In this document: positions 1,285-24,989 of the stretch, one piece after another
Layout: each line of letters starts with the position of its first letter
Numbering within the stretch: position 1 is the first letter of the stretch
IMG/VR virus record: IMGVR_UViG_2619619133_000007
From: a virus
Lineage: Duplodnaviria; Heunggongvirae; Uroviricota; Caudoviricetes
DNA length: 24,989 bases
Strand: one strand, 5' to 3'
The notes under the pieces: model-generated
What the model was told of the DNA's origin: nothing
Database searches by the model: none
Seen by the model: only the letters and a program-made list of their open reading frames with translations
Translations under genes and position numbers: made by a program

Positions 1285-1330
1285 AGGTTGCTCCGGGCTA
1301 TGAAATAGAAAAATGAATCCGTTGAAGCCT

Positions 1331-2685: not shown

Positions 2686-2710
2686 CGCAAAGTCTCCGCA
2701 ATTACACGCA

Positions 2711-2732
2711 AGAAAAAACCGCCATCAGGCGG
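2711..2732 (-). terminator. Putative intrinsic terminator (minus strand): CCGCC/GGCGG hairpin followed by T6
   Basis: Stem CCGCC-ATCA-GGCGG at 2719-2732 with A6 on plus strand (T6 on minus) at 2713-2718; overlaps stop of the 55-aa ORF. Confidence 0.5.
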
Positions 2733-2892
2733 CTTGGTGTTCTTTCAGTTCTTCAATTCGAATATTGGTTACGTCTGCATGTGCTATCTGCGCCCACAGC
2801 ATCCAGTGGTCATAGCAGTCGCTGATGTTCTCGGCTTCGATAACTCTGTTGAATGGTTCTCCATTCCATTCCCCTGTGCCTCGGAAGTGCAT
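2725..2892 (-). CDS. Small hypothetical protein (55 aa), lambda-like ORF immediately upstream of xis
   Basis: Hand-translated minus-strand ORF MHFRGTGEWNGEPFNRVIEAENISDCYDHWMLWAQIAHADVTNIRIEELKEHQAA, below the 60-aa cutoff of the ORF track; spacing to xis (40 nt) matches what I recall for a 55-aa lambda ORF. Confidence 0.45.
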   Translation of the reverse strand: MHFRGTGEWNGEPFNRVIEAENISDCYDHWMLWAQIAHADVTNIRIEELKEHQAA

Positions 2893-2930
2893 TTATCATC
2901 CCAAAAAAACAAACCCCGCCGTAGCGAGTT

Positions 2931-2963
2931 CAGATAAAAGAAATCCTCGTCAGTGCGAGGATG
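2931..2963 (-). terminator. Putative intrinsic terminator (minus strand) at boundary of accessory cassette
   Basis: 7-bp stem ATCCTCG/CGAGGAT (2944-2963) with T-rich run on minus strand (revcomp of 2931-2943). Confidence 0.4.
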
Positions 2964-3134
2964 CTGTTCATTGCTGCTATACACTTTTTTGCTCTCAACG
3001 TAAGCGGTAGCCCATTCTGTTGGGTTGGTGCAGTTGCTTTTAGGAAATGCTATTTACCCCTTAAATGTCGGCTGAAAGAGCTAAAATCCATGCAAAAAAT
3101 TTACGCAATTTTGTGTATTATTGTGCAGTAAGTA

Positions 3135-3737
3135 ATGAGCTATTTTCTGCGCAAAAAATGGATGGTAAATTTGTCCGGGTCAGGAAAAATTTTATGGGCG
3201 CTAAACATGAAAAAAGATTCGTATCCTTATTTGATTTGCATGACAGTTTCAGGGCTGATCTTTATTTTCCTTTTCTTCTGGTGGCGGGCAGATATCTACA
3301 GGGTCACGTTTCTTAATCAGAGTATATCCCACTATTACATTCTGTTTAGCATGGGAATAGCTTTTCTGTTATCTCTGTTTTGGGTTAAGAAGGGGATAGT
3401 AAAACAAAGAGGCTGGAAGAGTCTGTCAGCATACCTTAAGGTTTATGCAGGGATGTGCATATTTGCTGGATTTTTTCTGATTATACCCCTTACGACACTA
3501 ACTTATTTTTTGCCTGGAGAGACATCGTCTTATGTTGCACCGTATCGGTATACTTCCGGTAGTTCAAAAAGTTGTTCTGGAGCTGAGGTGGATGACCCCG
3601 ATCTACATGAGAATATTCGCATTTGCTATCCGTATGGCAATTATGAGTACGATAATATTATCTATGTTGAAAAGAAAATTAATATATTAGGTGCGGTAGT
3701 GACATATGCACAGACCGCGCGTGATGATACTGAATGA
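3135..3737 (+). CDS. Hypothetical membrane protein (about 3 predicted TM helices plus ~80-aa C-terminal soluble region); accessory (moron-like) gene; start codon uncertain (in-frame ATGs at 3135, 3162, 3207)
   Basis: 200-aa ORF on strand opposite to the flanking early-left genes, in a markedly AT-rich segment; hydrophobic stretches LICMTVSGLIFIFLFFWW, ILFSMGIAFLLSLFWV, VYAGMCIFAGFFLIIPLTTL; followed by hairpin terminator; no family recognised. Confidence 0.55.
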   Translation: MSYFLRKKWMVNLSGSGKILWALNMKKDSYPYLICMTVSGLIFIFLFFWWRADIYRVTFLNQSISHYYILFSMGIAFLLSLFWVKKGIVKQRGWKSLSAYLKVYAGMCIFAGFFLIIPLTTLTYFLPGETSSYVAPYRYTSGSSKSCSGAEVDDPDLHENIRICYPYGNYEYDNIIYVEKKINILGAVVTYAQTARDDTE

Positions 3738-3771
3738 TATAGTATATAGCGGGCAAGTTTTAGTTAATTTA

Positions 3772-3809
3772 TCGAGGTAATATAATTTACCTCGACTCGT
3801 TTGTTCTGG
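3772..3809 (+). terminator. Putative intrinsic terminator for the accessory gene
   Basis: Perfect 9-bp stem TCGAGGTAA/TTACCTCGA (3772-3795) followed by CTCGTTTGTTCT. Confidence 0.5.
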
Positions 3810-3947
3810 TATTAATATTTCGCTTTACGACCGATTTTTATCTGATGATATCATGCGGTTTTCATATACTGACTTACTGTCTTTTCTCCGTTAGCGATTT
3901 TCTCCTGCTCAGCGATGATTTTATCTTTGGCTTCTAGTTAATTTCGC

Positions 3948-4169
3948 TCACTTCGAACCTCTCTGTTTACTGATAAGCTCCAGATCCTCCTGGCAACTTG
4001 CACAAGTCCGACAACCCTGAACGACCAGGCGTCTTCGTTCATCTATCGGATCGCCACACTCACAACAATGAGTGGCAGATATAGCCTGGTGGTTCAGGCG
4101 GCGCATTTTTATTGCTGTGTTGCGCTGTAATTCTTCAATTTCTGATGCTGAATCAATGATGTCTGCCAT
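3948..4169 (-). CDS. TraR/DksA-family C4 zinc-finger protein (lambda Orf73-like)
   Basis: 73-aa ORF with CxxC...CxxC motif (CCECGDPIDERRRLVVQGCRTCASC), characteristic of TraR/DksA family. Confidence 0.75.
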   Translation of the reverse strand: MADIIDSASEIEELQRNTAIKMRRLNHQAISATHCCECGDPIDERRRLVVQGCRTCASCQEDLELISKQRGSK

Positions 4170-4267
4170 CTTTCATTAATCCCTGAATTGTTGGTTAATA
4201 CGCTTGAGGGTGAATGCGAATAATAAAAAAGGAGCCTGTAGCTCCATGATGATTTTGTTTTTCATGC

Positions 4268-4453
4268 TCACCGTTCCTTAAAGACGCCGTTTAACATGCC
4301 GATCGCCAGGCTTAAATGAGTCGGTGTGAATCCCATCAGCGTTACCGTTTCGCGGTGCTTCTTCAGTACGCTACGGCAAATGTCATCGACGTTTTTATCC
4401 GGAAACTGCTGTCTGGCTTTTTTGATTTCAGAATTAGCCTGACGGGCAATACT
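4268..4453 (-). CDS. Small early-left protein, lambda orf61-like (start at internal Met MTHQQENAL...)
   Basis: ORF track 4268..4549; conserved lambda-like sequence and 186-nt length from internal ATG. Confidence 0.6.
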   Translation of the reverse strand, partial: SIARQANSEIKKARQQFPDKNVDDICRSVLKKHRETVTLMGFTPTHLSLAIGMLNGVFKER

Positions 4454-4559
4454 GCGAAGGGCGTTTTCTTGCTGATGTGTCATTGAACAAGTCCCATGTC
4501 GGCAAGCATAAGCACACAGAATATGAAGCCCGCTGCCAGAAAAATGCATTCAGTGGTTG

Positions 4560-4751
4560 TCATACCTGGTCTCTCTCATCTGCTTCTGCTTTCGCCACCA
4601 TCATTTCCAGCTTTTGTGAAAGGGATGCGGCTAACGTATGAAATTCTTCGTCTGTTTCTACTGGTATTGGCACAAACCTGACTCCAATTTGAGCGAGGCT
4701 ATGTGCCATCTCAATGCTCGTTCTTAACTCAACAGGAGATGCTTTGTGCAT
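4560..4751 (-). CDS. Small early-left protein, lambda orf63-like
   Basis: 63-aa ORF; position and length match lambda PL-operon ORF between orf61 and orf60a. Confidence 0.6.
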   Translation of the reverse strand: MHKASPVELRTSIEMAHSLAQIGVRFVPIPVETDEEFHTLAASLSQKLEMMVAKAEADERDQV

Positions 4752-4906
4752 ACAGCTCCCCGTTTATTATTTATCTCCTCAGCCAGCCGCTGTGCTTTCA
4801 GGGGATTTCGGGTAACAGAAAGGCCGGGAAATACCCAGCCTCGCTTTGTAACGGAGTAGACGAAAGTGATCGCGCCTACCCGGATATTATCGTGAGGATG
4901 CTTCAT
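4724..4906 (-). CDS. Small early-left protein, lambda orf60a-like
   Basis: ORF 4724..4912; second Met gives the 60-aa lambda-length product overlapping exo stop by 4 nt. Confidence 0.6.
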
Positions 4907-5583
4907 CGCCATTGCTCCCCAAATACAAAACCAATTTCAGCCAGTGCCTCGTCCATTTTTTCGATGAACTCCGGCACCATCTCGTCAAAACTCGCCATGT
5001 ACTTTTCATCCCGCTCAACCACGACATAATGCAGGCCTTCACGCTTCATACGCGGGTCATAGTTGGCAAAGTACCAGGCATCTTTTCGCGTCACCCACAT
5101 GCTGTACTGCACCTGGGCCATGTAAGCCGACTTTATGGCCTCGAAACCACCGAGCCGGAACTTCATGAAATCCCGGGAGGTAAACGGGCATTTCAGCTCA
5201 AGGCCATTGCCGTCACTGCATAAACCATCGGGAGAGCAGGCGGTGCGCATACTTTCGTCGCGATAGATGATCGGGGATTCAATAACATTTACGCCGGAAG
5301 TGAACTCAAACAGGGTTCTGGCGTCGTTCTCGTACTGTTTTCCCCAGGCCAGCGCTTTAGCGTTAACTTCCGGAGCCACACCGGTGCAAACCTCAGCCAG
5401 CAGGGTGTGGAAGTAGGACATTTTCATGTCAGGCCACTTCTTTCCTGATCGGGGCTTTGCTATCACGTTGTGAACTTCTGAAGCGGTGATGACGCCGAGC
5501 CGTAATTTGTGCCATGCATCATCCCCCTGTTCGACAGCTCTCACGTCGATCCCGGTACGCTGCAGGATAATGTCCGGTGTCAT
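4903..5583 (-). CDS. exo: Lambda exonuclease (Red-alpha)
   Basis: 226-aa ORF near-identical to remembered lambda Exo. Confidence 0.95.
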
Positions 5584-6365
5584 GCTGCCACCTTCTGCTC
5601 AGTGGCTTTCTGTTTCAGGAATCCAAGAGCTTTCACTGCTTCGGCCTGTGTCAGTTCTGACGATGCGCGAATGTCGCGGCGAAATATCTGGGAACAGAGC
5701 GGCAATAAGTCGTCATCCCATGTTTTATCCAGGGCGATCAGCAGAGTGTTAATCTCCTGCATGGTTTCATCGTTAACCGGAGTGATGTCGCGTTCTGGCT
5801 GACGTTCTGCAGTGTATGCAGTATTTTCGACAATGCGCTCGGCTTCATCCTTGTCATAGATACCAGCAAATCCGAAGGCCAGACGGGCACACTGAATCAT
5901 GGCTTTATGCCGTAACATCCGTTTGGGATGCGACTGCCACGGCCCCGTGATTTCTCTGCCTTCGCGAGTTTTGAATGGTTCGCGGCGGCATTCATCCATC
6001 CATTCGGTAACGCAGATCGGATGATTACGGTCCTTGCGGTAAATCCGGCATGTACAGGATTCATTGTTCTGCTCAAAGTCCATGCCATCAAACTGCTGGT
6101 TTTCATTGATGATGCGGGACCAGCCATCAACGCCCACCACCGGAACGATGCCGTTCTGCTTATCAGGGAAGGCGTAAATTTCTTTCGTCCACGGATTAAG
6201 GCCGTACTGGTTGGCGACGATCAACAATGCGATGAACTGCGCATCGCTGGCATCACCTTTAAATGCCGTCTGGCGAAGAGTGGTGATCAGTTCCTGTGGG
6301 TCGACAGAATCCATGCCGACACGTTCAGCCAGCTTCCCTGCCAGCGTTGCGAGTGCTGTACTCAT
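5580..6365 (-). CDS. bet: Bet single-strand annealing protein (Red-beta)
   Basis: 261-aa ORF matching lambda Bet ([59 protein letters not shown]...). Confidence 0.95.
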
Positions 6366-6370
6366 CCGTT

Positions 6371-6667
6371 TTATACCTCTGAATCAATATCAACCTGGTG
6401 GTGAGCAATGGTTTCAACCATGTACTGGATGTGTTCTGCCATGCGCTCCTGAAACTCAACATCGTCATCAAACGCACGGGTAATGGCTTTTTTGCTGGCC
6501 CCGTGGCGTTGCAAATGATCGATGCATAGCGATTCAAACAGGTGCTGGGGCAGGCCTTTTTCCATGTCGTCTGCCAGTTCTGCCTCTTTCTCTTCACGGG
6601 CGATCTGCTGGTAGTGACGCGCCCAGCTCTGAGCCTCAAGACGATCCTGAATGTAATAAGCGTTCAT
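6371..6667 (-). CDS. gam: Gam, RecBCD inhibitor (98-aa short form only)
   Basis: Matches lambda GamS; good RBS (AGGAGG); upstream in-frame region has no start codon before a stop, so no long GamL form. Confidence 0.9.
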
Positions 6668-6742
6668 GGCTGACCTCCTGAAAATGGCTGTGAAAATATC
6701 GCCCGCGAAATGCCAGGCTGATTAGGAAAACAGGAAAGGGGA

Positions 6743-7033
6743 TTAGTGATTCAGGCCGTTACCGCGTCCGTCGAGAAAAACTTCCACGAGCAAATCACGG
6801 GTATAAGTGCGCTCGATGCCGCGATGCAGATAAAGCCGTCCGCGTAAATTAGCTGATGCAGTCCAGGTACCATCTTTGTGTTTGACCAGCATTCCTGGCA
6901 TGACCGCACCTCGATTAACGGTCTGCGTTCCATAATGTTGATGAACCATAAAAACTCCTGCCCGTAAGCTGGGCTGCTGAACATATAGAGACTTCTGCGC
7001 GTATTCAGGCGGTGGATGGCCGCCGGTTGTCAT
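6743..7033 (-). CDS. Hypothetical protein at the kil position; possibly Kil/KilR-like host cell-division inhibitor; start uncertain (internal Met at about 6949 possible)
   Basis: 96-aa ORF first downstream of the leftward early promoter; motif [20 protein letters not shown] resembles my recollection of prophage KilR-type proteins; an overlapping alternative frame (6751..6984) cannot be excluded. Confidence 0.4.
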
Positions 7034-7226
7034 AACTAAGCCGCCTCGTTGAAGCGACTAAGGTATGAAATGTTGAGTTAATTTCAGCTGGTCACACCGA
7101 CGTTCACGCGTCCGTTTCACCCCTCGCACTCCCCGAAGCCTGCTGAAATTCAAACTGCGGATCTAAGCGGTCATCGCAACGGTGAATCAGGTAGTTGCCG
7201 TATCGTTGTGTTGTTGCGATGAACTT

Positions 7227-7256
7227 ATTTAAAACTATAGTTGTTTTATCGTCAAC
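7227..7256 (-). promoter_or_regulatory. Putative leftward early promoter (PL-like) with overlapping operator repeats
   Basis: On minus strand -35 TTGACG (plus 7251-7256) and -10 TTAAAT (plus 7227-7232); overlapping AAAACAACTATAG and AACAAC/GTTGTT repeats shared with the rightward promoter region. Confidence 0.5.
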
Positions 7257-7392
7257 AACAAAAGTTGTTTTATTGGTTGTTTTAGATATAACTGGTTGTA
7301 TTTAGGATGGATTTATTTTGTGACTTGAATCGCATAGCGATAACTGAAGCGAGGTTATGGTGGTTTTTTTAACGGTGTGTGTGATGAGGGGA

Positions 7393-7423
7393 GGGCAAAA
7401 GAAAACCCGGCACGGTGACCGGG
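7393..7423 (-). terminator. Putative intrinsic terminator downstream of the repressor gene
   Basis: Stem CCCGG-CACGGTGA-CCGGG with TTTTCTTTT on the minus strand. Confidence 0.5.
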
Positions 7424-7544
7424 ATTCTTACGCCGTTAGGTAAAGATATTATTGCGGTGGCTTAATATTACTACCTAGAGCAAAGATAGGAATTAGTTCT
7501 TTACTGAATGAGCACAATGCCCAGTTGATAATTTTTAATTGGTA

Positions 7545-8234
7545 CTACCCATGCTTCCTATATGTCTGCGGCATGCTCCCAATAACCTTACCGAAGATGA
7601 ACACCCGGTTCATCTCGTCTTTCTCGATCGGGTCCCACGGTGAGTAGCTTTTGTTATCAGAGATGACCAGCAGCTTATCCTTCATCATTTGCAGGCGCTT
7701 TACATGGGCTGTGTCGTCGTACAGAAACGCATAGATACCATCACCGTCGAAAGATTTAACTGTGATATCAACGAACAGTAGATCACCTGGTTCGATCGTT
7801 CCTGACATGCTGTCACCACGCACGTTAATGATGCGGATATTTTCCGCCTTCCTACCATCGAACATGTGACGAGCATCGTCAAACGAGTACTCAACCGAGC
7901 GTAGAACTTCTACAAACTCACGGTTGATGACTCCCGGCCCAGCACTGACTTCTATATCAAGAACGTCAATCTTGAAGTATTTGGAATGGCTGACAGTTGA
8001 TTGTATTGGTTGCACTGTACTGTCTGACATATTTCCAACGCCAGAAGATAACCATTCTGCGCGCACACCCAAAGCGTTCGCGATCTCCACGATTTTAGTT
8101 GTTTGATTAGCTTTCCCTGTTTCGATTTTCTGAATAGCAGCCTGGCTAACCCCGACCAAATCCCCAAGCGCCTTTTGTGTAAGGCCTCGCGCTAATCTGG
8201 CTTCTTTAAGTCTTTCTGAGAGTGTTGTTTTCAT
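7545..8234 (-). CDS. CI-type prophage repressor (N-terminal XRE-type HTH, C-terminal S24 LexA-like peptidase domain); not lambda immunity
   Basis: Start taken at internal Met MKTTLSERLKEARLARGLTQKALGDLVG; Ala-Gly cleavage site and GDSM serine motif typical of RecA-stimulated autocleaving repressors; divergent from the adjacent cro-like gene. Confidence 0.8.
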   Translation of the reverse strand: MKTTLSERLKEARLARGLTQKALGDLVGVSQAAIQKIETGKANQTTKIVEIANALGVRAEWLSSGVGNMSDSTVQPIQSTVSHSKYFKIDVLDIEVSAGPGVINREFVEVLRSVEYSFDDARHMFDGRKAENIRIINVRGDSMSGTIEPGDLLFVDITVKSFDGDGIYAFLYDDTAHVKRLQMMKDKLLVISDNKSYSPWDPIEKDEMNRVFIFGKVIGSMPQTYRKHG

Positions 8235-8275
8235 AGTCCAAATGTACAACCAAGGTTTTATTCCATCAAACGAAA

Positions 8276-8311
8276 ATGGTTGTTGACTAAAAACAACCAT
8301 AGTTTTAATCT
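8276..8311 (+). promoter_or_regulatory. Putative rightward early promoter (PR-like) and operator: inverted repeat ATGGTTGTT-N7-AACAACCAT overlapping -35 TTGACT
   Basis: Perfect 9-bp inverted repeat at 8276-8300; -35 TTGACT at 8283-8288, candidate -10 TAATCT at 8306-8311; cro-like gene starts 8339 with GGAGG RBS. Confidence 0.55.
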
Positions 8312-8338
8312 TGATTCAAATTAACCACGGAGGTTGTT

Positions 8339-8569
8339 ATGAACCCAGCTATCAAAACAGCGATCAATATCGTTGGTTCACAAAAGAAACTGGGCGCTGC
8401 TTGCGAAGTTTCACAGCAGGCCGTCTATAAGTGGCTTCACAACAAAGCAAAGGTATCCCCTGAACATGTCGGCAGCATTGTTACGGCTACTGGTGGAGTA
8501 GTGAAGGCATACCAGATTCGCCCGGATCTTCCGAAGTTGTTTCCACACACCGAAAAGAACGCAGCTTAA
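8339..8569 (+). CDS. Cro-like small HTH regulator (YdaS-like)
   Basis: 76-aa ORF divergent from repressor, strong RBS; HTH-like segment LGAACEVSQQAVYKWL. Confidence 0.7.
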   Translation: MNPAIKTAINIVGSQKKLGAACEVSQQAVYKWLHNKAKVSPEHVGSIVTATGGVVKAYQIRPDLPKLFPHTEKNAA

Positions 8570-9264: not shown

Positions 9265-10194
9265 ATGGCAAACACTGCTGAGATATTCAATTTTCCAGTG
9301 CCGGATGCGGCACAAAAGGAGCCGCGCGTGGCAGATCTCGATGATGGTTATACGCGCATTGCAAATGAGTTGCTGGAAGCTGTGATGCTGACCGGATTAA
9401 CACAGCACCAGCTTCTGGTCTTTCTGGCTGTCATGCGCAAAACATATGGCTTTAATAAAAGACTGGATTGGGTGAGCAACGAGCAACTTTCCGAATTGAC
9501 CGGGATATTGCCGCACAAGTGTTCTGCTGCAAAAAGCGTTCTGGTAAAGCGTGGGATTCTTATTCAGAGCGGGCGGAATATCGGCATTAATAATGTGGTC
9601 AGTGAATGGTCAACATTACCCGAATCAGGTAAGAAAAATAAAGTTTACCTGAAAGAGGTAAATTTACCTGAATCAGGTAAGAAAAGTTTACCCAAATCAG
9701 GTAAAGGCGTTTACCCGAATCAGGTAAACACAAAAGACAAACTAACAAAAGACAATATAAAACCTTTTTCGTCCGAGAATTCTGGCGAATCCTCTGACCA
9801 GCCAGAAAACGATCTTCCTGTGGTGAAACCGGATGCTGCAATTCAGAGCGGCAGCAAGTGGGGGACAGCAGAAGACCTGACCGCCGCAGAGTGGATGTTT
9901 GACATGGTGAAGACTATCGCACCATCAGCCAGAAAACCGAATTTTGCTGGGTGGGCTAACGATATCCGCCTGATGCGTGAACGTGACGGACGTAACCACC
10001 GCGACATGTGCGTGCTGTTCCGCTGGGCATGCCAGGACAACTTCTGGTCCGGTAACGTGCTGAGCCCGGCCAAACTCCGCGATAAGTGGACCCAACTCGA
10101 AATCAACCGTAACAAGCAACAGGCAGGCGTGATAGCCAGCAAACCAAAACTCGACCTGACGAACACTGACTGGATTTACGGGGTGGAGCTATGA
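9265..10194 (+). CDS. O: Replication initiator O (lambda O-like; divergent N-terminal DNA-binding domain, lambda-identical C-terminal domain)
   Basis: Start at ATG 9265 with GGGAGG RBS; C-terminal ~110 aa match lambda O (SGSKWGTAEDLTAAEWMFDMVKTIAPSARKPNFAGWANDIRLMRERDG...); contains ori iterons. Confidence 0.9.
   Translation: MANTAEIFNFPVPDAAQKEPRVADLDDGYTRIANELLEAVMLTGLTQHQLLVFLAVMRKTYGFNKRLDWVSNEQLSELTGILPHKCSAAKSVLVKRGILIQSGRNIGINNVVSEWSTLPESGKKNKVYLKEVNLPESGKKSLPKSGKGVYPNQVNTKDKLTKDNIKPFSSENSGESSDQPENDLPVVKPDAAIQSGSKWGTAEDLTAAEWMFDMVKTIAPSARKPNFAGWANDIRLMRERDGRNHRDMCVLFRWACQDNFWSGNVLSPAKLRDKWTQLEINRNKQQAGVIASKPKLDLTNTDWIYGVEL
9616..9728. repeat. Origin iterons inside O: five ~19-bp repeats TTTACC(C/T)(G/A)A(A/T)(T/A)(C/G)AGGTAA(A/G), followed by an AT-rich stretch (9729-9770)
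   Basis: Repeats read directly at 9616-9633, 9644-9662, 9663-9681, 9688-9706, 9710-9728; each is an internal inverted repeat; arrangement is analogous to lambda ori but the sequence differs. Confidence 0.85.
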
Positions 10195-10300
10195 AAAACA
10201 TCGCCGCACAGATGGTTAACTTTGACCGTGAGCAGATGCGTCGGATCGCCAACAACATGCCGGAACAGTACGACGAAAAGCCGCAGGTACAACAGGTACA
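10191..10300 (+). pseudogene. P: Truncated replication gene P (first ~36 codons only)
   Basis: [36 protein letters not shown] matches lambda P N-terminus, start overlaps O stop (ATGA); similarity ends near 10298 and the reading frame terminates shortly after. Confidence 0.85.
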
Positions 10301-10630
10301 GGAAAAGACATCATGCTCGGTAAAACGTATACCAAAGCAGAATGCAAAGCACTCTTGAATAAAGACCTTGCCACTGTCGCCAGACAAATTAACCCGTACA
10401 TCAAAGTCGATATACCGGAAACAACGCGCGGCGCTCTTTACTCATTCGTTTACAACGTGGGTGCTGGCAATTTCAGAACATCGACGCTTCTTCGCAAAAT
10501 AAACCAGGGCGATATCAAAGGCGCATGTGATCAGCTACGTCGCTGGACATATGCTGGCGGTAAGCAATGGAAAGGTCTCATGACTCGTCGTGAGATTGAG
10601 CGTGAAATCTGTTTGTGGGGTCAGCAATGA
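10301..10630 (+). pseudogene. N-terminally truncated phage lysozyme (T4-lysozyme-type endolysin, RrrD-like), C-terminal ~105 aa only
   Basis: ORF 10313..10630 matches the C-terminal part of DLP12-type lysozyme as I remember it; the catalytic N-terminal region is absent because of the P/R deletion junction. Confidence 0.75.
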
Positions 10631-11969: not shown

Positions 11970-12168
11970 GAGGTTGTCCCGTATTCAGTGTCGCTGATTT
12001 GTATTGTCTGAAGTTGTTTTTACGTTAAGTTGATGCAGATCAATTAATATGATACCTGCGTCATAATTGATTATTTGACGTGGTTTGATGGCGTAGATGC
12101 ACGTTGTGACATGCAGATGATAATTATTATCATTTTGCGGGTCCTTTCCGGCGATCCGACAGGTTACG

Positions 12169-12180
12169 GGGCGGCGACCT
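12169..12180. other. cos: cosN cohesive-end sequence GGGCGGCGACCT (whole cos region about 12100-12360, cosQ upstream, cosB downstream)
   Basis: Sequence identical to the lambda genome termini: ...GGTTACG / GGGCGGCGACCTCGCGGGTTTTCGCTATTTATGAAAATTTTCCGG... Confidence 0.9.
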
Positions 12181-12357
12181 CGCGGGTTTTCGCTATTTAT
12201 GAAAATTTTCCGGTTTAAGGCATTTCCGTTCTTCTTCGTCGTAACTTAATGTTTTTATTTAAAATACCCCCTGAAAAGAAAGGAAACGACAGGTGCTGAA
12301 AACGAGCTTTTGGGCCTCTGTCGTTTCCTTTCTCTGTTTTTGGCCGTGGAATGAACA

Positions 12358-12877
12358 ATGGAAGTCAACAAAAAGCAGCTGGCTGACATTTTCGGTGCGA
12401 GTATCCGTACCATTCAGAACTGGCAGGAACAGGGAATGCCCGTTCTGCGAGGCGGTGGCAAGGGTAATGAGGTGCTTTATGATTCTGCCGCCGTCATAAG
12501 ATGGTATGCCGAAAGGGATGCTGAAATTGAGAACGAAAAGCTGCGCCGGGAAGTTGAAGAACTGCGGCAGGCCAGCGAGACAGATCTCCAGCCAGGGACT
12601 ATTGAGTACGAACGCCATCGACTTACGCGTGCGCAGGCCGACGCACAGGAGCTGAAAAATGCCAGAGACTCCGCTGAAGTGGTGGAAACCGCATTCTGTA
12701 CTTTCGTGCTGTCGCGGATCGCAGGTGAAATTGCCAGTATTCTCGACGGGATCCCCCTGTCGGTGCAGCGGCGTTTTCCGGAACTGGAAAACCGACATGT
12801 TGATTTCCTGAAACGGGATATCATCAAAGCCATGAACAAAGCAGCCGCGCTGGATGAACTGATACCGGGGTTGCTGA

Positions 12878-12903
<26 letters not shown>
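12358..12903 (+). CDS. nu1: Terminase small subunit Nu1
   Basis: 181-aa ORF matching lambda Nu1. Confidence 0.95.
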
Positions 12904-16584
<3,681 letters not shown>

Positions 16585-16604
<20 letters not shown>

Positions 16605-17904
16605 TCTCCCGCATATTGCCAGCATGGCCTTTAATGAGCCGCTGATGCTTGAACCCGCCTATGCGCGGGTTTTCTTTTGTGCGCTTGCAGGCCAGCTTGG
16701 GATCAGCCGCCTGACAGATGCGGTGTCCGGTGACAGCCTGACTGCCCCGGAGGCACCCGCGACGCTGGCGTTATCCGGTGATGATGACGGACCACGACAG
16801 GCCCGCAGTTATCAGGTCATGAACGGCATCGCCGTGCTGCCGGTGTCCGGCACGCTGGTCAGCCGGACGCGAGCGCTGCAGCCGTATTCGGGGATGACCG
16901 GTTACAACGGCATTATCGCCCGTCTGCAACAGGCTGCCAGCGACCCGATGGTGGACGGCATTCTGCTCGATATGGATACGCCAGGCGGGATGGTGGCAGG
17001 GGCATTTGACTGCGCTGACATCATCGCCCGTGTGCGTGACATAAAGCCGGTATGGGCGCTGGCCAATGACATGAACTGCAGTGCAGGGCAGCTGCTTGCC
17101 AGCGCCGCCTCCCGGCGTCTGGTCACGCAGACCGCCCGGACAGGCTCCATCGGCGTCATGATGGCTCACAGTAATTACGGTGCTGCGCTGGAGAAACAGG
17201 GCGTGGAAATCACGCTGATTTACAGCGGCAGCCATAAGGTGGATGGCAACCCCTACAGCCATCTTCCGGATGACGTCCGGGAGACACTGCAGTCCCGGAT
17301 GGATGCAACCCGCCAGATGTTTGCGCAGAAGGTGTCGGCATATACCGGCCTGTCCGTGCAGGCTGTGCTGGATACCGAGGCTGCAGTGTACAGCGGTCAG
17401 GAGGCCATTGATGCCGGACTGGCTGATGAACTTGTCAACAGCACCGATGCGATCACCGTTATGCGTGATGCACTGGATGCACGTAAATCCCGTCTCTCAG
17501 GAGGGCGAATGACCAAAGAGACTCAATCAACAACTGTTTCAGCCACTGCTTCGCAGGCTGACGTTACTGGCGTGGTGCAAGCGACGGAGGGCGAGAACGC
17601 CAGCGCGGCGCAGCCGGACGTGAACGCGCAGATCACCGCAGCGGTTGCGGCAGAAAACAGTCGCATTATGGGGATCCTCAACTGTGAGGAGGCTCACGGA
17701 CGCGAAGAACAGGCTCGCGTGCTGGCCGAAACCCCCGGTATGACCGTGGAAACGGCCCGCCGCATTCTGGCCGCAGCACCACAGAGTGCACAGGCGCGCA
17801 GTGACACTGCGCTGGATCGTCTGATGCAGGGGGCACCGGCACCGCTGGCTGCAGGTAACCCGGCATCTGATGCCGTTAACGATTTGCTGAACACACCAGT
17901 GTAA
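16585..17904 (+). CDS. C: Head maturation protease/scaffold C (GTG start overlapping end of B)
   Basis: 439-aa product from GTG at 16585 matches lambda gpC (MTAELRNLPHIASMAFNEPLMLEPAYARVFF...); the ORF track extends it upstream artefactually. Confidence 0.9.
17299..17904 (+). CDS. nu3: Scaffolding protein Nu3 (in-frame internal start within C)
   Basis: In-frame ATG at 17299 giving the C-terminal 201 codons of C, as in lambda Nu3; start position inferred by analogy. Confidence 0.6.
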   Translation: MDATRQMFAQKVSAYTGLSVQAVLDTEAAVYSGQEAIDAGLADELVNSTDAITVMRDALDARKSRLSGGRMTKETQSTTVSATASQADVTGVVQATEGENASAAQPDVNAQITAAVAAENSRIMGILNCEEAHGREEQARVLAETPGMTVETARRILAAAPQSAQARSDTALDRLMQGAPAPLAAGNPASDAVNDLLNTPV

Positions 17905-17913
17905 GGGATGTTT

Positions 17914-18246
17914 ATGACGAGCAAAGAAACCTTTACCCATTACCAGCCGCTGGGCAACAGTGACCCGGCTCATACCGCAACCGCGCCCGGCGGATTGAGT
18001 AAGAAAACGCCAGCAATGACTCCGTTGATGCCGGATACCTCCACCCGTAAGCTGGTTGCGTGGGATGGCACCACCGACGGTGCTGCCGTTGGCATTCTTG
18101 CTGTTGCTGCTGACCAGACCAGCACCACGCTGACGTTCTACAAGTCCGGCACGTTCCGTTATGAGGATGTGCTCTGGCCGGAGGCTGCCAGCGACGAGGC
18201 GAAAAAACGGACCGCGTTTGCCGGAACGGCAATCAGCATCGTTTAA
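17914..18246 (+). CDS. D: Head decoration protein D
   Basis: 110-aa product from ATG 17914 matches lambda gpD. Confidence 0.95.
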
Positions 18247-18301
18247 CCTGACCCTTCATCACTAAAGGCCGCCTGTGCGGCTTTTTTTACGGGATTTTTT
18301 T

Positions 18302-19327
18302 ATGTCGATGTACACAACCGCCCAGCTGCTGGCGGCAAATGAGCAGAAATTTAAGTTTGATCCGCTGTTTCTGCGTCTCTTTTTCCGTGAGAGCTATCCC
18401 TTCACTACGGAGAAAGTCTATCTCTCACAAATTCCGGGACTGGTAAACATGGCGCTGTACGTTTCGCCGATTGTTTCCGGTGAGGTTATCCGTTCCCGTG
18501 GCGGCTCCACCTCTGAATTTACGCCGGGATATGTCAAACCCAAGCATGAGGTGAATCCGCAGATGACCCTGCGTCGCCTGCCGGATGAAGATCCACAGAA
18601 TCTGGCGGACCCGGCTTACCGCCGCCGTCGCATCATCATGCAGAACATGCGAGACGAAGAGCTGGCCATTGCTCAGGTCGAAGAGATGCAGGCAGTTTCT
18701 GCCGTGCTCAAGGGCAAATACACCATGACCGGTGAAGCCTTCGATCCGGTTGAGGTGGATATGGGCCGCAGTGAAGCGAATAACATCACACAGTCTGGCG
18801 TCACGGAGTGGAGCAAGCGTGACAAGTCCACGTATGACCCGACCGACGATATCGAAGCCTACGCGCTGAACGCCAGCGGCGTGGTGAATATCATCGTGTT
18901 TGACCCGAAAGGCTGGGCGCTGTTCCGTTCCTTCAAAGCCGTCAGGGAGAAGCTGGATACCCGTCGCGGCTCTCATTCCGAACTGGAGACAGCGGTAAAA
19001 GACCTGGGCAAAGCGGTGTCTTATAAGGGAATGTATGGCGATGTGGCCATCGTCGTGTATTCCGGACAGTACGTGGAAAACGGCGTCAAAAAGAACTTCC
19101 TGCCGGACAACACGATGGTGCTGGGTAACACTCATGCACGCGGTCTGCGCACCTATGGCTGTATTCAGGATGCGGATGCATTGAGTGAGGGTATTAATGC
19201 GTCTCCCCGTTATCCGAAAAACTGGAAGACATCCGGCGATCCGGCGCGAGAGTTCACCATGATTCAGTCAGCACCGCTGATGCTGCTGGCTGATCCTGAT
19301 GAGTTCGTGTCCGTTCAACTGGCGTAA
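18302..19327 (+). CDS. E: Major capsid protein E
   Basis: 341-aa product from ATG 18302 matches lambda gpE. Confidence 0.95.
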   Translation: MSMYTTAQLLAANEQKFKFDPLFLRLFFRESYPFTTEKVYLSQIPGLVNMALYVSPIVSGEVIRSRGGSTSEFTPGYVKPKHEVNPQMTLRRLPDEDPQNLADPAYRRRRIIMQNMRDEELAIAQVEEMQAVSAVLKGKYTMTGEAFDPVEVDMGRSEANNITQSGVTEWSKRDKSTYDPTDDIEAYALNASGVVNIIVFDPKGWALFRSFKAVREKLDTRRGSHSELETAVKDLGKAVSYKGMYGDVAIVVYSGQYVENGVKKNFLPDNTMVLGNTHARGLRTYGCIQDADALSEGINASPRYPKNWKTSGDPAREFTMIQSAPLMLLADPDEFVSVQLA

Positions 19328-19368
19328 TCATGGCCCTTCGGGGCCATTTTCTCTCTGTGGAGGAATCC

Positions 19369-19764
19369 ATGACGAAAGATGAACTGATTGCCCGTCTCCG
19401 GTCGCTGGGTGAGCAACTGAACCGTGATGTCAGCCTGACGGGGACGAAAGAAGAACTGGCGCTCCGTGTGGCAGAGCTGGAAGAGGAGCTTGATGACACG
19501 GATGACGCAGCCGGTCTGGACACGTCTGTCAGCCCGGAAAATGCGCTGACCGGACATGAAAATGAGGTGGTATCAGCGCAGACGGATACCGTGACTGATA
19601 CGGCTGCTCTGGTCACGGTTGTGGCACTGGTGACGCTGCATACTGATGCACTTCACGCCACGCGGGATGAGGCTGTGGCATTTGTGCTGCCGGGAACGGC
19701 GTTCCGTGTCTCTGCCGGTGTGGCAACTGAAATGACAGCGCGCGGCCTGGCCAGAATGCAATAA
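19369..19764 (+). CDS. FI: Head completion/DNA packaging protein FI
   Basis: 131-aa product from ATG 19369 with GGAGG RBS; lambda gpFI-like with a divergent central segment. Confidence 0.85.
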   Translation: MTKDELIARLRSLGEQLNRDVSLTGTKEELALRVAELEEELDDTDDAAGLDTSVSPENALTGHENEVVSAQTDTVTDTAALVTVVALVTLHTDALHATRDEAVAFVLPGTAFRVSAGVATEMTARGLARMQ

Positions 19765-19775
19765 CGGGAGGCGCT

Positions 19776-20129
19776 GTGGCTGATTTCGATAACCTGTTCG
19801 ATGCTGCCATTGTCCGCGCCGATGAAACGATACGCGGGTACATGGGAACGTCAGCCACCATGACATCCGGTGAGCAGTCCGGCGCAGTAATACGTGGTGT
19901 TTTTGATGACCCTGAAAATATCAGCTATGCCGGACAGGGCGTGCGCGTTGAAGGCTCCAGCCCGTCCCTGTTTGTCCGGACTGATGATGTGCGGCAGCTG
20001 CGGCGTGGAGACACGCTGACCATCGGTGAGGAAAACTTCTGGATAGACCGGGTTTCGCCGGATGATGGTGGAAGCTGTCATCTCTGGCTTGGGCGGGGCG
20101 TACCGCCTGCCGTTAACCGTCGCCGCTGA
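19776..20129 (+). CDS. FII: Head-tail connector protein FII (GTG start)
   Basis: 117-aa ORF matching lambda gpFII. Confidence 0.9.
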   Translation: MADFDNLFDAAIVRADETIRGYMGTSATMTSGEQSGAVIRGVFDDPENISYAGQGVRVEGSSPSLFVRTDDVRQLRRGDTLTIGEENFWIDRVSPDDGGSCHLWLGRGVPPAVNRRR

Positions 20130-20140
20130 AAGGGGGATGT

Positions 20141-20680
20141 ATGGCCATAAAAGGTCTTGAGCAGGCCATTGAAAACCTCAGCCGTATCAGCAAAACGGCG
20201 GTGCCTGGTGCCGCCGCAATGGCCATTAACCGCGTTGCTTCATCCGCGATATCGCAGTCGGCGTCACAGGTTGCCCGTGAGACAAAGGTACGCCGGAAAC
20301 TGGTAAAGGAAAGGGCCAGGCTGAAAAGGGCCACGGTCAAAAATCCGCAGGCCAGAATCAAAGTTAACCGGGGGGATTTGCCCGTAATCAAGCTGGGTAA
20401 TGCGCGGGTTGTCCTGTCCCGCCGCAGGCGTCGTAAAAAGGGGCAGCGTTCATCCCTGAAAGGTGGCGGCAGCGTGCTTGTGGTGGGTAACCGTCGTATT
20501 CCCGGCGCGTTTATTCAGCAACTGAAAAATGGCCGGTGGCATGTCATGCAGCGTGTGGCCGGGAAAAACCGTTACCCCATTGATGTGGTGAAAATCCCGA
20601 TGGCGGTGCCGCTGACCACGGCGTTTAAACAGAATATTGAACGGATACGGCGTGAACGTCTTCCGAAAGAGCTGGGCTAA
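20141..20680 (+). pseudogene. Z: Tail gene Z, C-terminally truncated (179 aa versus ~192) at a deletion junction
   Basis: Matches lambda gpZ up to ...RERLPKELG, then a stop; downstream sequence is J-derived. Confidence 0.75.
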
Positions 20681-20796
20681 CCGAATCTCATCTCGGCAAG
20701 GAGCTGCTGGAAAAAGTCGATCTGACGGAGGATAACGCCAGCAGACTGGATGAGTTTTCGAAAGAGTGGAAGGACGCTAACGATAAATGGAATGCC

Positions 20797-23328
20797 ATGT
20801 GGGGCGTCAAAATTGAGCAGACCAAAGACGGCAAACATTATGTCGCGGGTATTGGCCTCAGCATGGAGGACACGGAGGAAGGCAAGCTGAGCCAGTTTCT
20901 GGTTGCCGCTAACCGTATCGCGTTTATTGACCCGGCAAACGGGAATGAAACGCCGATGTTTGTGGCGCAGGGCAACCAGATATTCATGAACGACGTGTTC
21001 CTGAAGCGCCTGACGGCCCCCACCATTACCAGCGGTGGCAGTCCTCCGGTATTTTCCCTGACATCAGACGGAAAGCTGACCGCTAAAAATGCGGATATCA
21101 GTGGCAGTGTGAATGCGAACTCAGGAACGCTCAACAATGTCACGATTAACCAGAACTGTACGATTAAGGGCATGCTGGAGGCGACCCAGGTCAGAGGGGA
21201 TTTCGTTAAAGCTGTATCAAAAGCCTTCCCGAAAAAAGTCGGTACGTGGGGTAACACGGAAACACCAAACGGTACGGTTATTGCATCCGCCGTGGCGCTT
21301 GAGGATGCGAGCACGACGAAAAAGGGGATAGTACAGCTCAGCAGTGCGACCAACAGCACTTCCGAGTCACTGGCGGCAACGCCAAAGGCAGTAAAAGCAG
21401 CCTATGACAATGCAGAGAAACGTCTGCAGAAAGACCAGAACGGCGCTGATATACCCGATAAGGTACGCTTCCTGAACAACATTAACGCGGTCAGTAAAAC
21501 AGACTTTGCTGATAAGCGTGGTATGCGTTATGTGCGGGTTAACGCTCCTGCAGGTGCAACATCTGGAAAATATTACCCTGTTGTTGTTATGCGTTCTGCT
21601 GGCTCAGTAAGCGAACTGGCATCAAGGGTCATTATCACCACGGCAACGCGAACCGCAGGCGATCCGATGAATAACTGCGAGTTTAACGGATTTGTTATGC
21701 CTGGTGGCTGGACTGACAGGGGGCGTTATGCTTATGGAATGTTCTGGCAATATCAAAACAATGAACGAGCCATCCACTCAATAATGATGAGTAATAAGGG
21801 CGATGATTTGCGCTCTGTGTTCTATGTTGATGGCGCTGCTTTCCCTGTTTTTGCGTTCATCGAAGATGGCCTGTCAATATCCGCACCTGGTGCTGATCTC
21901 GTTGTTAATGATACGACCTATAAGTTTGGGGCAACAAATCCAGCGACTGAATGTATCGCGGCGGACGTTATCCTTGATTTTAAGAGTGGGCGTGGTTTTT
22001 ATGAGTCCCATTCGTTAATCGTTAACGATAACTTGTCGTGCAAAAAACTTTTTGCCACAGACGAAATTGTAGCGCGTGGTGGTAATCAGATTCGAATGAT
22101 AGGTGGGGAGTATGGTGCATTATGGCGTAATGATGGCGCTAAAACTTACCTGCTGCTTACCAATCAAGGTGATGTTTATGGTGGATGGAATACATTAAGA
22201 CCGTTTGTTATTGATAACGCAACCGGCGAACTGGTTATTGGAACCAAACTGTCTGCAAGTCTGAACGGTAACGCATTGACAGCAACAAAGCTGCAAACGC
22301 CAAGACTGGTTTCTGGTGTTGAGTTTGATGGTTCCAAAGATATTACTTTAACCGCCGCGCATGTGGCTGCTTTTGCCAGAAGGGCAACGGATACATATGC
22401 CGATGCGGATGGTGGCGTTCCCTGGAATGCCGAATCAGGCGCTTACAATGTCACCCGCTCTGGCAACAGCTATATTCTGGTTAACTTCTATACCGGAGTC
22501 GGAAGTTGCCGGACCCTGCAGATGAAGGCGCATTACAGAAATGGTGGTCTGTTCTACCGTTCTTCAAGAGACGGTTATGGTTTTGAGGAAGACTGGGCAG
22601 AAGTTTATACCTCGAAAAATCTTCCACCAGAAAGCTACCCAGTCGGCGCACCAATCCCGTGGCCATCAGATACCGTTCCGTCTGGTTATGCCCTGATGCA
22701 GGGGCAGACTTTTGACAAATCTGCCTACCCGAAACTTGCAGCCGCTTATCCGTCAGGCGTGATCCCTGATATGCGTGGCTGGACGATTAAGGGCAAACCT
22801 GCCAGTGGTCGGGCCGTATTGTCTCAGGAACAGGACGGCATTAAATCGCATACCCACAGCGCCAGCGCATCCAGTACGGATTTGGGGACGAAAACCACAT
22901 CGTCGTTTGATTACGGAACCAAATCCACGAATAACACCGGGGCGCATACCCATAGTATTAGCGGGATCGCAAATAGTGCCGGTGCGCACCAACACAAGAG
23001 TTCCGGTGCATTTGGTGGCACGAACACGAGCATTTTCCCTAATGGTTATACCGCGATTTCAAATCTAAGCGCGGGGATTATGAGCACAACAAGCGGTAGT
23101 GGCCAGACTCGTAATGCAGGGAAGACATCATCAGATGGTGCTCATACCCACTCGCTGTCCGGCACTGCTGCAAGCGCAGGCGCACATGCACATACTGTCG
23201 GTATTGGTGCTCATACGCACTCCGTTGCGATTGGTTCACATGGACACACCATCACCGTTAACGCTGCTGGTAACGCGGAAAACACCGTCAAAAACATCGC
23301 ATTTAACTATATTGTGAGGCTTGCATAA
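20797..23328 (+). CDS. Chimeric tail fibre protein: J (host-specificity protein) C-terminal-region fragment fused in frame to a side-tail-fibre (Stf-like) body with His-rich (HxH) C-terminal domain; open frame extends upstream to 20656 without ATG
   Basis: First ~145 aa match the lambda J region (...[28 protein letters not shown]...NCTI.G.L....GD.VKA.S.AFP); from [39 protein letters not shown] onward it is Stf-like, ending in the lambda Stf C-terminus (...[30 protein letters not shown]). Confidence 0.7.
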
Positions 23329-23909
23329 TGGCATTCAGAATGAGTGAACAACCACGGACCATAAAAATTTATAATCTGCTGGCCGGAACTAATGAATTTA
23401 TTGGTGAAGGTGATGCATATATTCCGCCTCATACAGGTCTGCCAGCAAACAGTACCGATATTGCACCGCCAGATATTCCGGCTGGCTTCGTGGCTGTTTT
23501 CAACAGTGATGAGTCATCGTGGCATCTCGTTGAAGATCATCGGGGTAAAACGGTTTATGACGTGGCTTCCGGCGACGCGTTATTTATTTCTGAACTCGGT
23601 CCGTTACCGGAAAATGTTACCTGGTTATCGCCGGAAGGGGAGTTTCAGAAGTGGAACGGCACAGCCTGGGTGAAGGATACGGAAGCAGAAAAACTGTTCC
23701 GGATCCGGGAGGCGGAAGAAACAAAAAACAACCTGATGCAGGTAGCCAGTGAGCATATTGCGCCGCTTCAGGATGCTGCAGATCTGGAAATTGCAACGGA
23801 GGAAGAAATCTCGTTGCTGGAAGCATGGAAAAAGTATCGGGTATTGCTGAACCGTGTTGATACGTCAACTGCACAGGATATTGAATGGCCAGTAGCACCT
23901 ATAGGGTAA
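23328..23909 (+). CDS. tfa: Tail fibre assembly protein Tfa
   Basis: 193-aa ORF overlapping stf stop (TAATG), matches lambda Tfa. Confidence 0.9.
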
Positions 23910-24001
23910 ATTCGTAATGATTACCTAAATACGTTATTCTTTTGTTAAAAAAGTGATTTTTCTATAGGTAGGGAGTATGTTCTTGGATTAAGAATAAAAA
24001 A

Positions 24002-24026
24002 TCGCCATGAAAGAGCTTCATGGCGA
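24002..24026 (-). terminator. Putative intrinsic terminator (minus strand)
   Basis: Perfect 10-bp stem TCGCCATGAA/TTCATGGCGA with 5-nt loop, followed on the minus strand by TTTTTTATTCTT. Confidence 0.55.
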
Positions 24027-24658
24027 ATACATAAACGTACAAAATGTGATGAAAGTAGAGTGGCGTAAGCCACTATATTAAGATATAACAATAGCGAAGA
24101 AAAGTAAATAACATTTTATGGACGTTTAATTGTTAATTATAAAAACTAGAGTGCCCGATATTGTTTATCTTGCTTTAAAATAATGTACTCAAACCAAATT
24201 TTTGAGCTAAAAGCTCAAATAATATAAATGCAATAATAATGTTTAATAAGACAATTAGCTTGCTTTGTATTTTCATTTCGGAATACTGTTAAGTAACTTT
24301 GATGACCCTAACAATAGATCGGAATTTTCTTAGAGTCAATGGTCACTGTTTTTGCTTGCAAAGCAAATGTTTTGGTGGTTATAAGTTGTCTTAATATAGT
24401 CACGCATGCAACTTGTTCCATGCGGAGATTAAAGATTGGAATATAACGCGAAGATGGAATTAAATTACATTTGCAATAATCAATTTATTATTACTCAATA
24501 ATTACCGATATTATTATTGTAAATTAATCATTAGAGTGCAAAAAGAAATGTAACGGCAAAATAAGAGGACGATAGCTGAGAAAAAAGCGTGCTTTCCCAA
24601 TCTGGGGCAAATCACGTCTGAATGACACCTGAAAACAGGTGGTAGCCTCAAGAAGGCT

Positions 24659-24989
24659 GGTGATGCTGCCAACTTACTGATTTAGTGTATGATGGTGTTT
24701 TTGAGGTGCTCCAGTGGCTTCTGTTTCTATCAGCTGTCCCTCCTGTTCAGCTACTGACGGGGTGGTGCGTAACGGCAAAAGCACCGCCGGACATCAGCGC
24801 TATCTCTGCTCTCACTGCCGTAAAACATGGCAACTGCAGTTCACTTACACCGCTTCTCAACCCGGTACGCACCAGAAAATCATTGATATGGCCATGAATG
24901 GCGTTGGATGCCGGGCAACTGCCCGCATTATGGGCGTTGGCCTCAACACGATTTTACGTCACTTAAAAAACTCAGGCCGCAGTCGGTAA
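24659..24989 (+). mobile_element. IS1: IS1 insertion sequence, left ~331 bp (continues beyond window)
   Basis: Terminal inverted repeat GGTGATGCTGCCAACTTACTGAT at 24659 followed by insA. Confidence 0.9.
24714..24989 (+). CDS. insA: IS1 InsA protein
   Basis: 91-aa [54 protein letters not shown]... matching IS1 InsA; stop is the last codon of the window. Confidence 0.95.

Follow-up and report, generated by a model that had tools for sequence, protein, structure and literature searches.

In lambdoid phages, residues 1-94 of Stf fix the side tail fibre to the tail, and the collar domain together with the proximal coiled coil attaches it to the gpV/gpM ring (PMC12617516). Lambda PaPa, in which the gene is represented by orf-401 and orf-314, is the classical case of a lambdoid stf that was inactivated while phage and prophage were still maintained (PMC12617516; PMC3945230). 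Experiments have also shown that lambdoid phages exchange DNA with stf and tfa of the defective prophages Rac and Qin (PMC3945230).

Several prophages carry fusions to the distal part of stf. In the Qin J'-'stf pseudogene of E. coli ET358 (NMD38_RS11760) and NMBU-W12E19, a J fragment is joined to distal stf and followed by tfa, lom and the Stf N-terminus are deleted, and the prophage is tail-less and defective. In-frame fusions of other late genes to distal Stf, again followed by tfa, were seen as Nu1::Stf (P0047, CP057171.1) and, at the Qin locus, as gpA::Stf (P0045) and portal::Stf (P0079). Two further gene calls considered as new junctions (P0075 and P0077) turned out to stem from gene calling or from the start of a contig.

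The locus analysed here lies in a window of 24,989 nucleotides (Table 1) and shares the arrangement of a late-gene fragment, distal stf and tfa with these loci. It differs from the ET358/NMBU-W12E19 pseudogene, which arose by an independent event at another chromosomal locus, retains J almost complete to its C-terminus, has its stf breakpoint ~80 nt further upstream, and is joined out of frame, its annotation being that of a frameshifted pseudogene. The Nu1, gpA and portal fusions have stf breakpoints within about 20 nt of that in the window, but in each of them the left partner has retained its start codon, whereas the J fragment of the window has none. In lambda PaPa, a single-base frameshift splits an otherwise complete stf, whereas the window has a 2.4-kb deletion that takes the N-terminal 451 codons.

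Table 1 Features of the window and of the chimeric J/Stf reading frame.
Feature	Position	Strand	Description
Pectinesterase-like ORF, identified as ybhC	4-1284	-	427 aa; flanks attL
attL core	1331-1345	.	Left prophage end
Junction C region	10299-10626	+	O/P lambda homology ends at lambda 39689, then 5'-truncated endolysin fragment
Truncated Z	20141-20680	+	179/192 codons; Minor_tail_Z profile positions 1-176 of 190
J-derived segment	20677-21279	+	J codons 822-1022; alignments, Pfam, structure match
Junction A	20678-20679	.	Lambda 8515 meets lambda 17969; 2-bp (TA) overlap of the alignments
Longest initiable chimeric ORF	20797-23328	+	843 aa; ATG 20797 is J codon 862; no Shine-Dalgarno-like sequence 5'
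Junction B	21276-21280	.	J codon 1022 joined to Stf codon 452; in frame; 2-bp TA microhomology
stf-derived segment	21280-23328	+	Stf codons 452-1133 and stop; 98.5% protein identity to E166 StfR, 682 aa, ungapped
Conserved tail-fibre motif block	21280-21395	+	Pfam Phage_fiber_2; 83% identical to lambda 20687-20803
Central segment without lambda Stf similarity	21396-22644	+	Gp34_trimer domain; normal E166-type stf allele
C-terminal Collar and HxH-repeat needle/tip domain	22645-23325	+	Pfam Collar, gp37_C; resembles lambda orf-314 and T4 gp37 tip
tfa (tail fibre assembly chaperone)	23328-23909	+	Intact, 193 aa; Caudo_TAP E=4.7e-43
IS1 (insA start)	24714-24989	+	Contig and window both end inside; intact relatives carry IS1 at the same place

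The chimeric frame is open from stop to stop over 20656-23328 (890 codons). The sequence-only reading had described it as a single long ORF starting in J; the open frame was confirmed, but its first seven codons (20656-20676) are gene Z sequence in the wrong frame and not J. No ATG, GTG or TTG was found in this frame between 20656 and ATG 20797, so the longest ORF that can be initiated encodes 843 aa. An open frame of 843 codons is far beyond chance. The chimera contains the Pfam domains Phage_Tail_Tip, Phage_fiber_2, Gp34_trimer, gp37_C and Collar. The J hub, the FNIII and Ig domains, Ig_GpJ_C and phage_tail_N were undetected by Pfam in the chimera, and all were found in the E166 parents.

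The J-derived part was compared with several J genes. Its positions 20678-21183 are 92.7% identical in nucleotide sequence to lambda 17969-18474, positions 20678-21280 are 94% identical to the J gene of E. coli E166, and positions 20678-20980 share 100% identity with gpJ genes annotated in O55:H7 strains. The encoded protein matches lambda gpJ residues 821-1020 (PDB 8IYK, E=1.5e-105), and Phage_Tail_Tip (PF09327) was detected at residues 32-158 of the 890-codon frame (E=5.3e-34). With gpJ domains named according to PMC11101478, the segment starts in the last part of the alpha-helical shaft, spans the central straight fibre, to which Pfam Phage_Tail_Tip corresponds, and stops ~20 residues into the receptor-binding domain. 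The segment is therefore J-derived, as had been proposed, and J codons 822-1022 are a middle piece of the gene. Relative to lambda gpJ (PDB 8IYK, 8XCJ), the window retains the equivalent of residues 822-1022, including the beta-prism central straight fibre, but lacks residues 1-821 with the domains that build the tail tip and almost all of the LamB-binding C-terminal domain (PF12421). The N-terminal hub (Pfam Phage-tail_3) and the FNIII/Ig domains are absent from the chimera and present in E166 J. The receptor-binding Ig-like domain PF12421, which E166 J carries at residues 1001-1136, was likewise undetected in the chimera.

The remainder of the ORF is distal Stf. In the 843-aa ORF, residues 162-209 share 77% identity with residues 347-394 of lambda orf-401, and residues 612-843 share 69% identity with residues 68-314 of lambda orf-314, with the C-terminal tip also matching PDB 2XGF (E=1.5e-83). 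Residues 210-611 have no lambda match. The earlier description of a lambda Stf-like HxH domain behind a ~400-aa centre unlike lambda Stf was thus accurate, and domain prediction assigned Gp34_trimer to the centre. The central segment recurs in the full-length stfR of E166 at 98.5% nucleotide identity and in phage mEp332 at about 97.6%; where it differs from lambda Stf, it is the typical E166/mEp332/ev099 allele. Because the centre is the normal allele of intact stf genes, the suggestion that it may carry a different receptor specificity says nothing that is particular to this locus.

Compared with E166 StfR (WP_086525258.1, 1133 aa), the chimera keeps residues 452-1133, and it shares with lambda/Ur-lambda Stf the conserved motif, the HxH C-terminal domain and a tfa gene directly 3'. 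Unlike all of these, it lacks the collar domain and most of the proximal coiled coil. E166 StfR has the N-terminal collar/attachment domain (PF08400), as do essentially all full-length homologues. The predicted product therefore has neither virion-attachment domain, that of J or that of Stf. The tfa gene is intact, as had been noted; it begins with an ATG that overlaps the stop codon of stf and is preceded by a GAGG motif of tfa's own, and an identical Tfa protein was seen on 45 contigs. Both the stf and the tfa parts are free of inactivating mutations.

We used E166, with the gene order J-lom-stfR-tfa-IS1, as the intact comparator. The window follows J to nt 6603 of the E166 locus (L001) and continues with stfR from nt 9034, with nothing between, and both flanks of the joint are colinear with E166. 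The 2435 bp missing relative to E166 comprise the J receptor-binding domain, lom and Stf residues 1-451. This comparison and the Pfam results confirmed the reported loss of lom and the Stf N-terminus, and the aligned breakpoint falls inside the interval of about 21230-21280 first estimated for the switch. No Chi site occurs in the window.

Junction B was found only in three near-identical draft assemblies. The joint is present at 100% identity in two NCBI assemblies of the source lineage (GCA_000700245.1 and GCA_000700425.1), in which the locus was located via the truncated Z protein, and with one mismatch in an independent Logan assembly of run SRR1186636. In IMG/VR, only the contig of the same lineage (L048) carries it. 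Searches of 5,426 complete E. coli genomes and 50,697 phage records yielded no junction B. The exact patterns of junctions A and B had no match in GTDB representatives, nor did that of junction B in metagenomes. The exact 843-aa product was not found in a collection of 15 billion proteins, and none of the best 120 homologues covered more than 85% of the ORF.

The ORF sits in a lambda-like prophage, integrated at att-lambda, that has suffered at least two more deletions (Z to J and P to R). In E166, ybhB and bioA lie on the other side of the prophage from ybhC. Lambda 1-8515 (cos-Nu1...Z) runs straight into J at lambda 17969, and the TAA stop codon of Z (20678-20680) arises at this joint. Deletion A spans ~9.45 kb and removes the end of Z, all of U, V, G, T, H, M, L, K and I, and J codons 1-821. 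Deletion C removes P, the nin region, the late-gene activator Q, pR' and S, and homology to the endolysin and Rz genes resumes from lambda 45966. No ORFs for U, V, G, T, H, M, L, K, I, Q or S are present.

Signals for expression of the chimera were also sought. The J piece lacks its native start codon, no Shine-Dalgarno-like motif precedes any in-frame start within 20656-21400, and no promoter-like site was found on the + strand over 19700-22448. The gene call of the assembly itself (L003) begins only at GTG 21292. After deletion C, transcription from pR could in principle read through O'-'R-Rz and the head genes into the chimera, a hypothetical route. We infer from these sequence features that the ORF is without meaningful expression and without a role as an adhesin.

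The sequence-only reading had offered two origins for the ORF, a recombinational scar of a decaying prophage or a genuine hybrid adhesin. With high confidence, we interpret it as a J/Stf scar of ordinary prophage decay. The joint is a deletion relative to colinear intact prophages, two other large deletions affect the same element, and none of the collections searched contains an intact J::Stf gene with this joint. A precedent comes from fusions of a similar type in other prophages, the non-functional ET358 pseudogene and the Nu1, gpA and portal chimeras. In the sequence of events that we propose, at least three illegitimate-recombination deletions (A, B and C) took DNA out of a lambda-like prophage that an E. 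coli lineage carries at att-lambda. Deletion B, at the TA microhomology, preserved the reading frame by chance (a one-in-three prior), so that a headless J fragment, consisting only of central-fibre shaft, reads into the distal two-thirds of Stf.

A working adhesin would need the chimera to be translated from ATG 20797 or GTG 21292, to trimerise with Tfa and to bind receptors, for example on helper phage particles or as an exclusion factor. Such a product is conceivable as a folded protein, since both parents are trimeric fibres and the fusion is in frame; moreover, the frame is open, distal Stf and Tfa are intact, and the C-terminal tip strongly resembles the receptor-binding tip of T4 gp37. 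We nevertheless consider this very unlikely. The J piece has neither start codon nor hub and the Stf piece has no PF08400 collar, as J residues 1-821 and Stf residues 1-451 are both missing. The element has no tail genes left, and Shine-Dalgarno, promoter-like site, Q and pR' are all lacking. An export signal, as needed at the cell surface, was not seen on inspection of the sequence by eye, and the architecture is absent elsewhere among complete E. coli genomes, phage records and protein homologues. A somewhat less probable history is that deletion B came first, in a viable phage whose central fibre exchanged its LamB-binding domain for distal Stf, and that deletion A followed. The sequence is compatible with either order of the two deletions, and the joint lies near the boundary between the J central fibre and the receptor-binding domain, ahead of the conserved Stf module. 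However, lom and the Stf collar would have been missing from such a phage as well, and complete E. coli genomes, phage records, IMG/VR, GTDB representatives, metagenomes and the protein collection all failed to yield a full-length gene with the joint.

That assembly or sequencing created the fusion is less credible still. A draft contig ends with this window, breaking off in IS1, and E. coli genomes carry several copies of J and stf, but the joint recurs in two NCBI assemblies, an independent Logan assembly and the IMG/VR contig, and lies within unique flanking sequence away from the contig end. The reading of the N-terminal segment as the normal N-terminus of a known Stf family, not J, has a negligible probability: full-length Stf homologues all begin with PF08400, and the segment shows 92.7% identity to lambda J, 100% identity to annotated gpJ, Phage_Tail_Tip and the gpJ structure match.

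As a scar, the fused ORF itself matters little. Distal stf and tfa are likely the only parts of lasting biological value, and this module could serve incoming lambdoid phages as a donor for homologous recombination. The locus shows at base-pair resolution how microhomology-mediated deletions erode a lambda-like prophage at att-lambda, and it cautions annotators that what looks like a long "tail fibre" ORF can be a J/Stf scar.

Within ~20 nt of the stf breakpoint (window 21264-21280), just 5' of the conserved fibre-motif block, lie the ends of at least five independent prophage deletions. Their left partners are J (twice), Nu1, gpA and portal, and three of the deletions cross over in the same CA(G) trinucleotide. 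A windowed scan of IMG/VR returned two junctions at -12 to -1 and none in the four flanking 12-nt windows, while a wider metagenome scan around the site returned none. These numbers are very small, a hotspot therefore rests on few events, and we regard a non-random breakpoint confined to ~20 nt as rather doubtful. If real, it would reflect a site-specific break or recombination signal in lambdoid stf, or selection for the distal-Stf/Tfa module, which would act via a ratchet of nested deletions that keeps this self-contained module in cryptic prophages. If confirmed, the recurrent breakpoint could mark a fragile or recombinogenic site that has gone unrecognised.

Two specific accounts of this clustering were rejected. 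The breakpoint does not mark a mosaic boundary between Stf families, as homology to lambda Stf extends to either side of it. A crossover site of a Pin/Gin-type invertase, considered since pinQ adjoins tfaQ in Qin, also found no support, as a by-eye comparison with the gix/hix consensus sequences gave no dyad-symmetric match. The window has no pin gene. By analogy with Mu S, the boundary between constant and variable parts would lie ~125 nt downstream of the breakpoint cluster.

The + strand is open in one frame from 20656 to the stop codon at 23326-23328, confirming the long in-frame J-Stf frame of the sequence-only reading, and the earliest usable start, ATG 20797, gives an 843-aa product. 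Bases 20656-20676 belong to gene Z but are out of the Z frame. The proposed J origin of the N-terminal part was borne out, as genes annotated as gpJ in O55:H7 strains are 100% identical to it over 20678-20980. The tfa that follows was indeed intact, and identical copies of the Tfa protein occur on 45 contigs.

Every top E. coli match to 20100-24989 was split into two pieces, spanning ~6.7 kb. In strain E166, where the gene order is J (1137 aa), lom, stfR (1133 aa), tfa, IS1, ybhB and bioA, J matched window 20678-21280 at 94% identity, ending at nt 6603 of the E166 locus (L001), and stfR matched 21276-24989 at 98.5% identity, beginning at nt 9034. The parental sequences at the joint are ...ACGGTTA/CAGTC in J and ...GAGGATA/TTGCATCC in stf, and the window reads ...ACGGTTA/TTGCATCC. 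The joint is a 2435-bp deletion relative to E166, with TA microhomology. Alignment placed the breakpoint between J codon 1022 (Val) and Stf codon 452 (Ile), with the reading frame kept.

Using the truncated Z protein as a query led to five contigs. The final 12,989 nt of contig JNMH01000016.1 (GCA_000700245.1) match window 12001-24989 at 100% identity, and contig and window stop at the same base within IS1. The region is also carried by GCA_000700425.1 at 100% identity, by the Logan assembly of run SRR1186636 with one mismatch, and by an IMG/VR contig of the same lineage (L048). The recurrence in the last three rules out an assembly artefact as the origin of the joints.

The fusion is rare. 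The exact product had no record in a collection of 15 billion proteins, and the best 120 homologues each cover at most 85% of the ORF, which means that none of them has the J and Stf parts together. The J-stf joint was found as a single piece in 0 of 5,426 complete E. coli genomes and in no phage record, and had no exact match in GTDB representatives or metagenomes. Many full-length Stf homologues among the best 120 bear the name 'short-chain fatty acid transporter', which looks like a propagated misannotation.

The centre of the ORF had been described as divergent, and no lambda Stf counterpart was found for residues 210-611. However, the entire stf part is 98.5% identical to full-length E166 StfR and ~97.6% identical to phage mEp332, which makes the centre an ordinary allele. 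The deposited annotation of mEp332 (L012 2913-6313) splits the stf region into two separate ORFs, 227 aa and 678 aa long, and leaves a gap unannotated. This suggests that stf is either disrupted, as it is in laboratory lambda, or miscalled in its Ala/Ser-rich region.

We derived the prophage order from alignment to lambda plus annotation. The gene at attL is one that we take to be ybhC. Just a 5'-truncated endolysin fragment lies between the lambda 39689 and 45966 homologies; P, the nin region, the late activator Q, pR' and S have been lost. Lambda 8515 directly abuts lambda 17969 (J codon 822), and the tail genes U, V, G, T, H, M, L, K and I are missing, together with J codons 1-821. An element with this gene content is unable to make tails, and it cannot lyse cells or activate the late operon normally.

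Features of the window, stf deletion endpoints (offsets counted from window 21281) and related loci
Feature	Position	Strand	Details
attL core	from 1331		beside a 427-aa pectinesterase-like gene
int-xis and exo-bet-gam	after the attL side gene		lambda alignment
Immunity region	before O		non-lambda, with S24-type repressor
O region	after immunity region		lambda homology stops at lambda 39689
Third deletion	9728-10630		lambda homology ends ~100 nt into P (39689), resumes at 45966 (Rz)
cos	12169		then Nu1 through Z = lambda 1-8515
Truncated lambda Z	20141-20680	+	ends at codon 179/192; Pfam Minor_tail_Z
tfa	23328-23909	+	193 aa; Caudo_TAP
IS1	24714-24989	+	starts at 24714, continues past window end
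Nu1 aa103/stf	-10 to -8		crossover in GCA; stf-specific from -7
gpA aa255/stf	-9 to -7		crossover in CAG; stf-specific from -6
J nt 16349/stf	-9 to -8		crossover in CA; stf-specific from -7; out of frame
Portal aa215/stf	about -17		
Window J/stf	-1		
Endpoint loci, other records	L013 (~4288), L014 (~4771), L015 (~4647), L104 (~3119)		
Qin examples	L010 8791-11635, L011 6743-8324		strains ET358 and NMBU-W12E19
Qin examples	L014, L015		Qin locus

Pfam domains in the chimera are Phage_Tail_Tip, Phage_fiber_2, Gp34_trimer, gp37_C and Collar; intact E166 J additionally has Phage-tail_3, FNIII-A, two Ig domains and Ig_GpJ_C, and intact E166 StfR has phage_tail_N. Comparison with solved structures paired the J part with lambda gpJ residues 821-1020 and the C-terminus with the T4 gp37 receptor-binding tip (PDB 2XGF, E=1.5e-83). 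gpJ is built from hub domains, two FNIII domains and an alpha-helical shaft (residues 809-861); beyond these come the beta-prism central straight fibre and the receptor-binding domain (PMC11101478). Of all this, the chimera retains no more than the prism, a portion of the shaft and ~20 receptor-binding-domain residues. In Stf, residues 1-94 make up the collar, which anchors the side fibre to the gpV/gpM ring (PMC12617516); unlike full-length Stf, the chimera has these deleted. With this predicted architecture, neither parental route could mount the ORF product on a virion.

No Shine-Dalgarno-like motif precedes any in-frame start in 20656-21400, and no promoter-like site was found on the + strand in 19700-22448. 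The source assembly's recorded gene call starts only at GTG 21292, giving 678 aa. A genuine hybrid adhesin, one of two origins proposed earlier, is thus unsupported, with both mounting routes predicted to be lost and neither expression signal found. The other, a scar of a decaying prophage, is very probably correct, given the deletion relative to E166 and the missing tail genes, Q and S.

At least five independent deletions, with J (twice), Nu1, gpA and portal as left partners, end in stf within ~20 nt (window 21264-21280), in a sample that is small and partly shaped by the search, as matches were ranked against a query starting at this stf point. In three of them, the crossover lies in a shared CA(G) trinucleotide directly 5' of GAGGATATTGCATCC. 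More distant endpoints are at -80, about -300 (three events), -824, -861, -993 and codon 53. In windowed IMG/VR scans, two junctions fell at -12 to -1, and the four adjacent 12-nt windows contained none. Homology to lambda Stf is present on either side of the endpoint site, and the window contains no Chi site. This apparent clustering is a lead, and the sole element meriting follow-up.

Similar scars occur in Qin, another E. coli prophage locus. In strain ET358, gpA'-'J'-'stf-tfaQ-pinQ is annotated as a frameshifted pseudogene; its J-stf joint differs from the window's in that J runs nearly to its end, the stf sequence starts ~80 nt upstream of the window's stf breakpoint and the two parts are out of frame. 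Several nested deletion states of Qin exist among strains (A-W-portal'::'stf, A'::'J'::'stf and A'::'stf), all retaining distal stf and tfa.

In E. coli VE-V10-F (L009 9298-9445), Z is cut at the base where it is cut in the window (179 aa), but J resumes 141 bp earlier than at the window joint (20678-20680). TAACCG is present at both J sites, so the window's Z-J joint may have arisen from a VE-V10-F-like ancestor by a secondary slippage deletion of 141 bp. This origin is uncertain, since the identity between the two J fragments is just 86%. Contigs from two other samples (L006 and L007) terminate exactly at the window's Z truncation position, which would fit an assembly-graph branch point there.

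The position of IS1 downstream of tfa is common to the window and many att-lambda prophages (E166 and others; L001 12472-13169), including intact relatives, and the insertion is therefore older than the J-stf deletion. The draft contig break lies within IS1.
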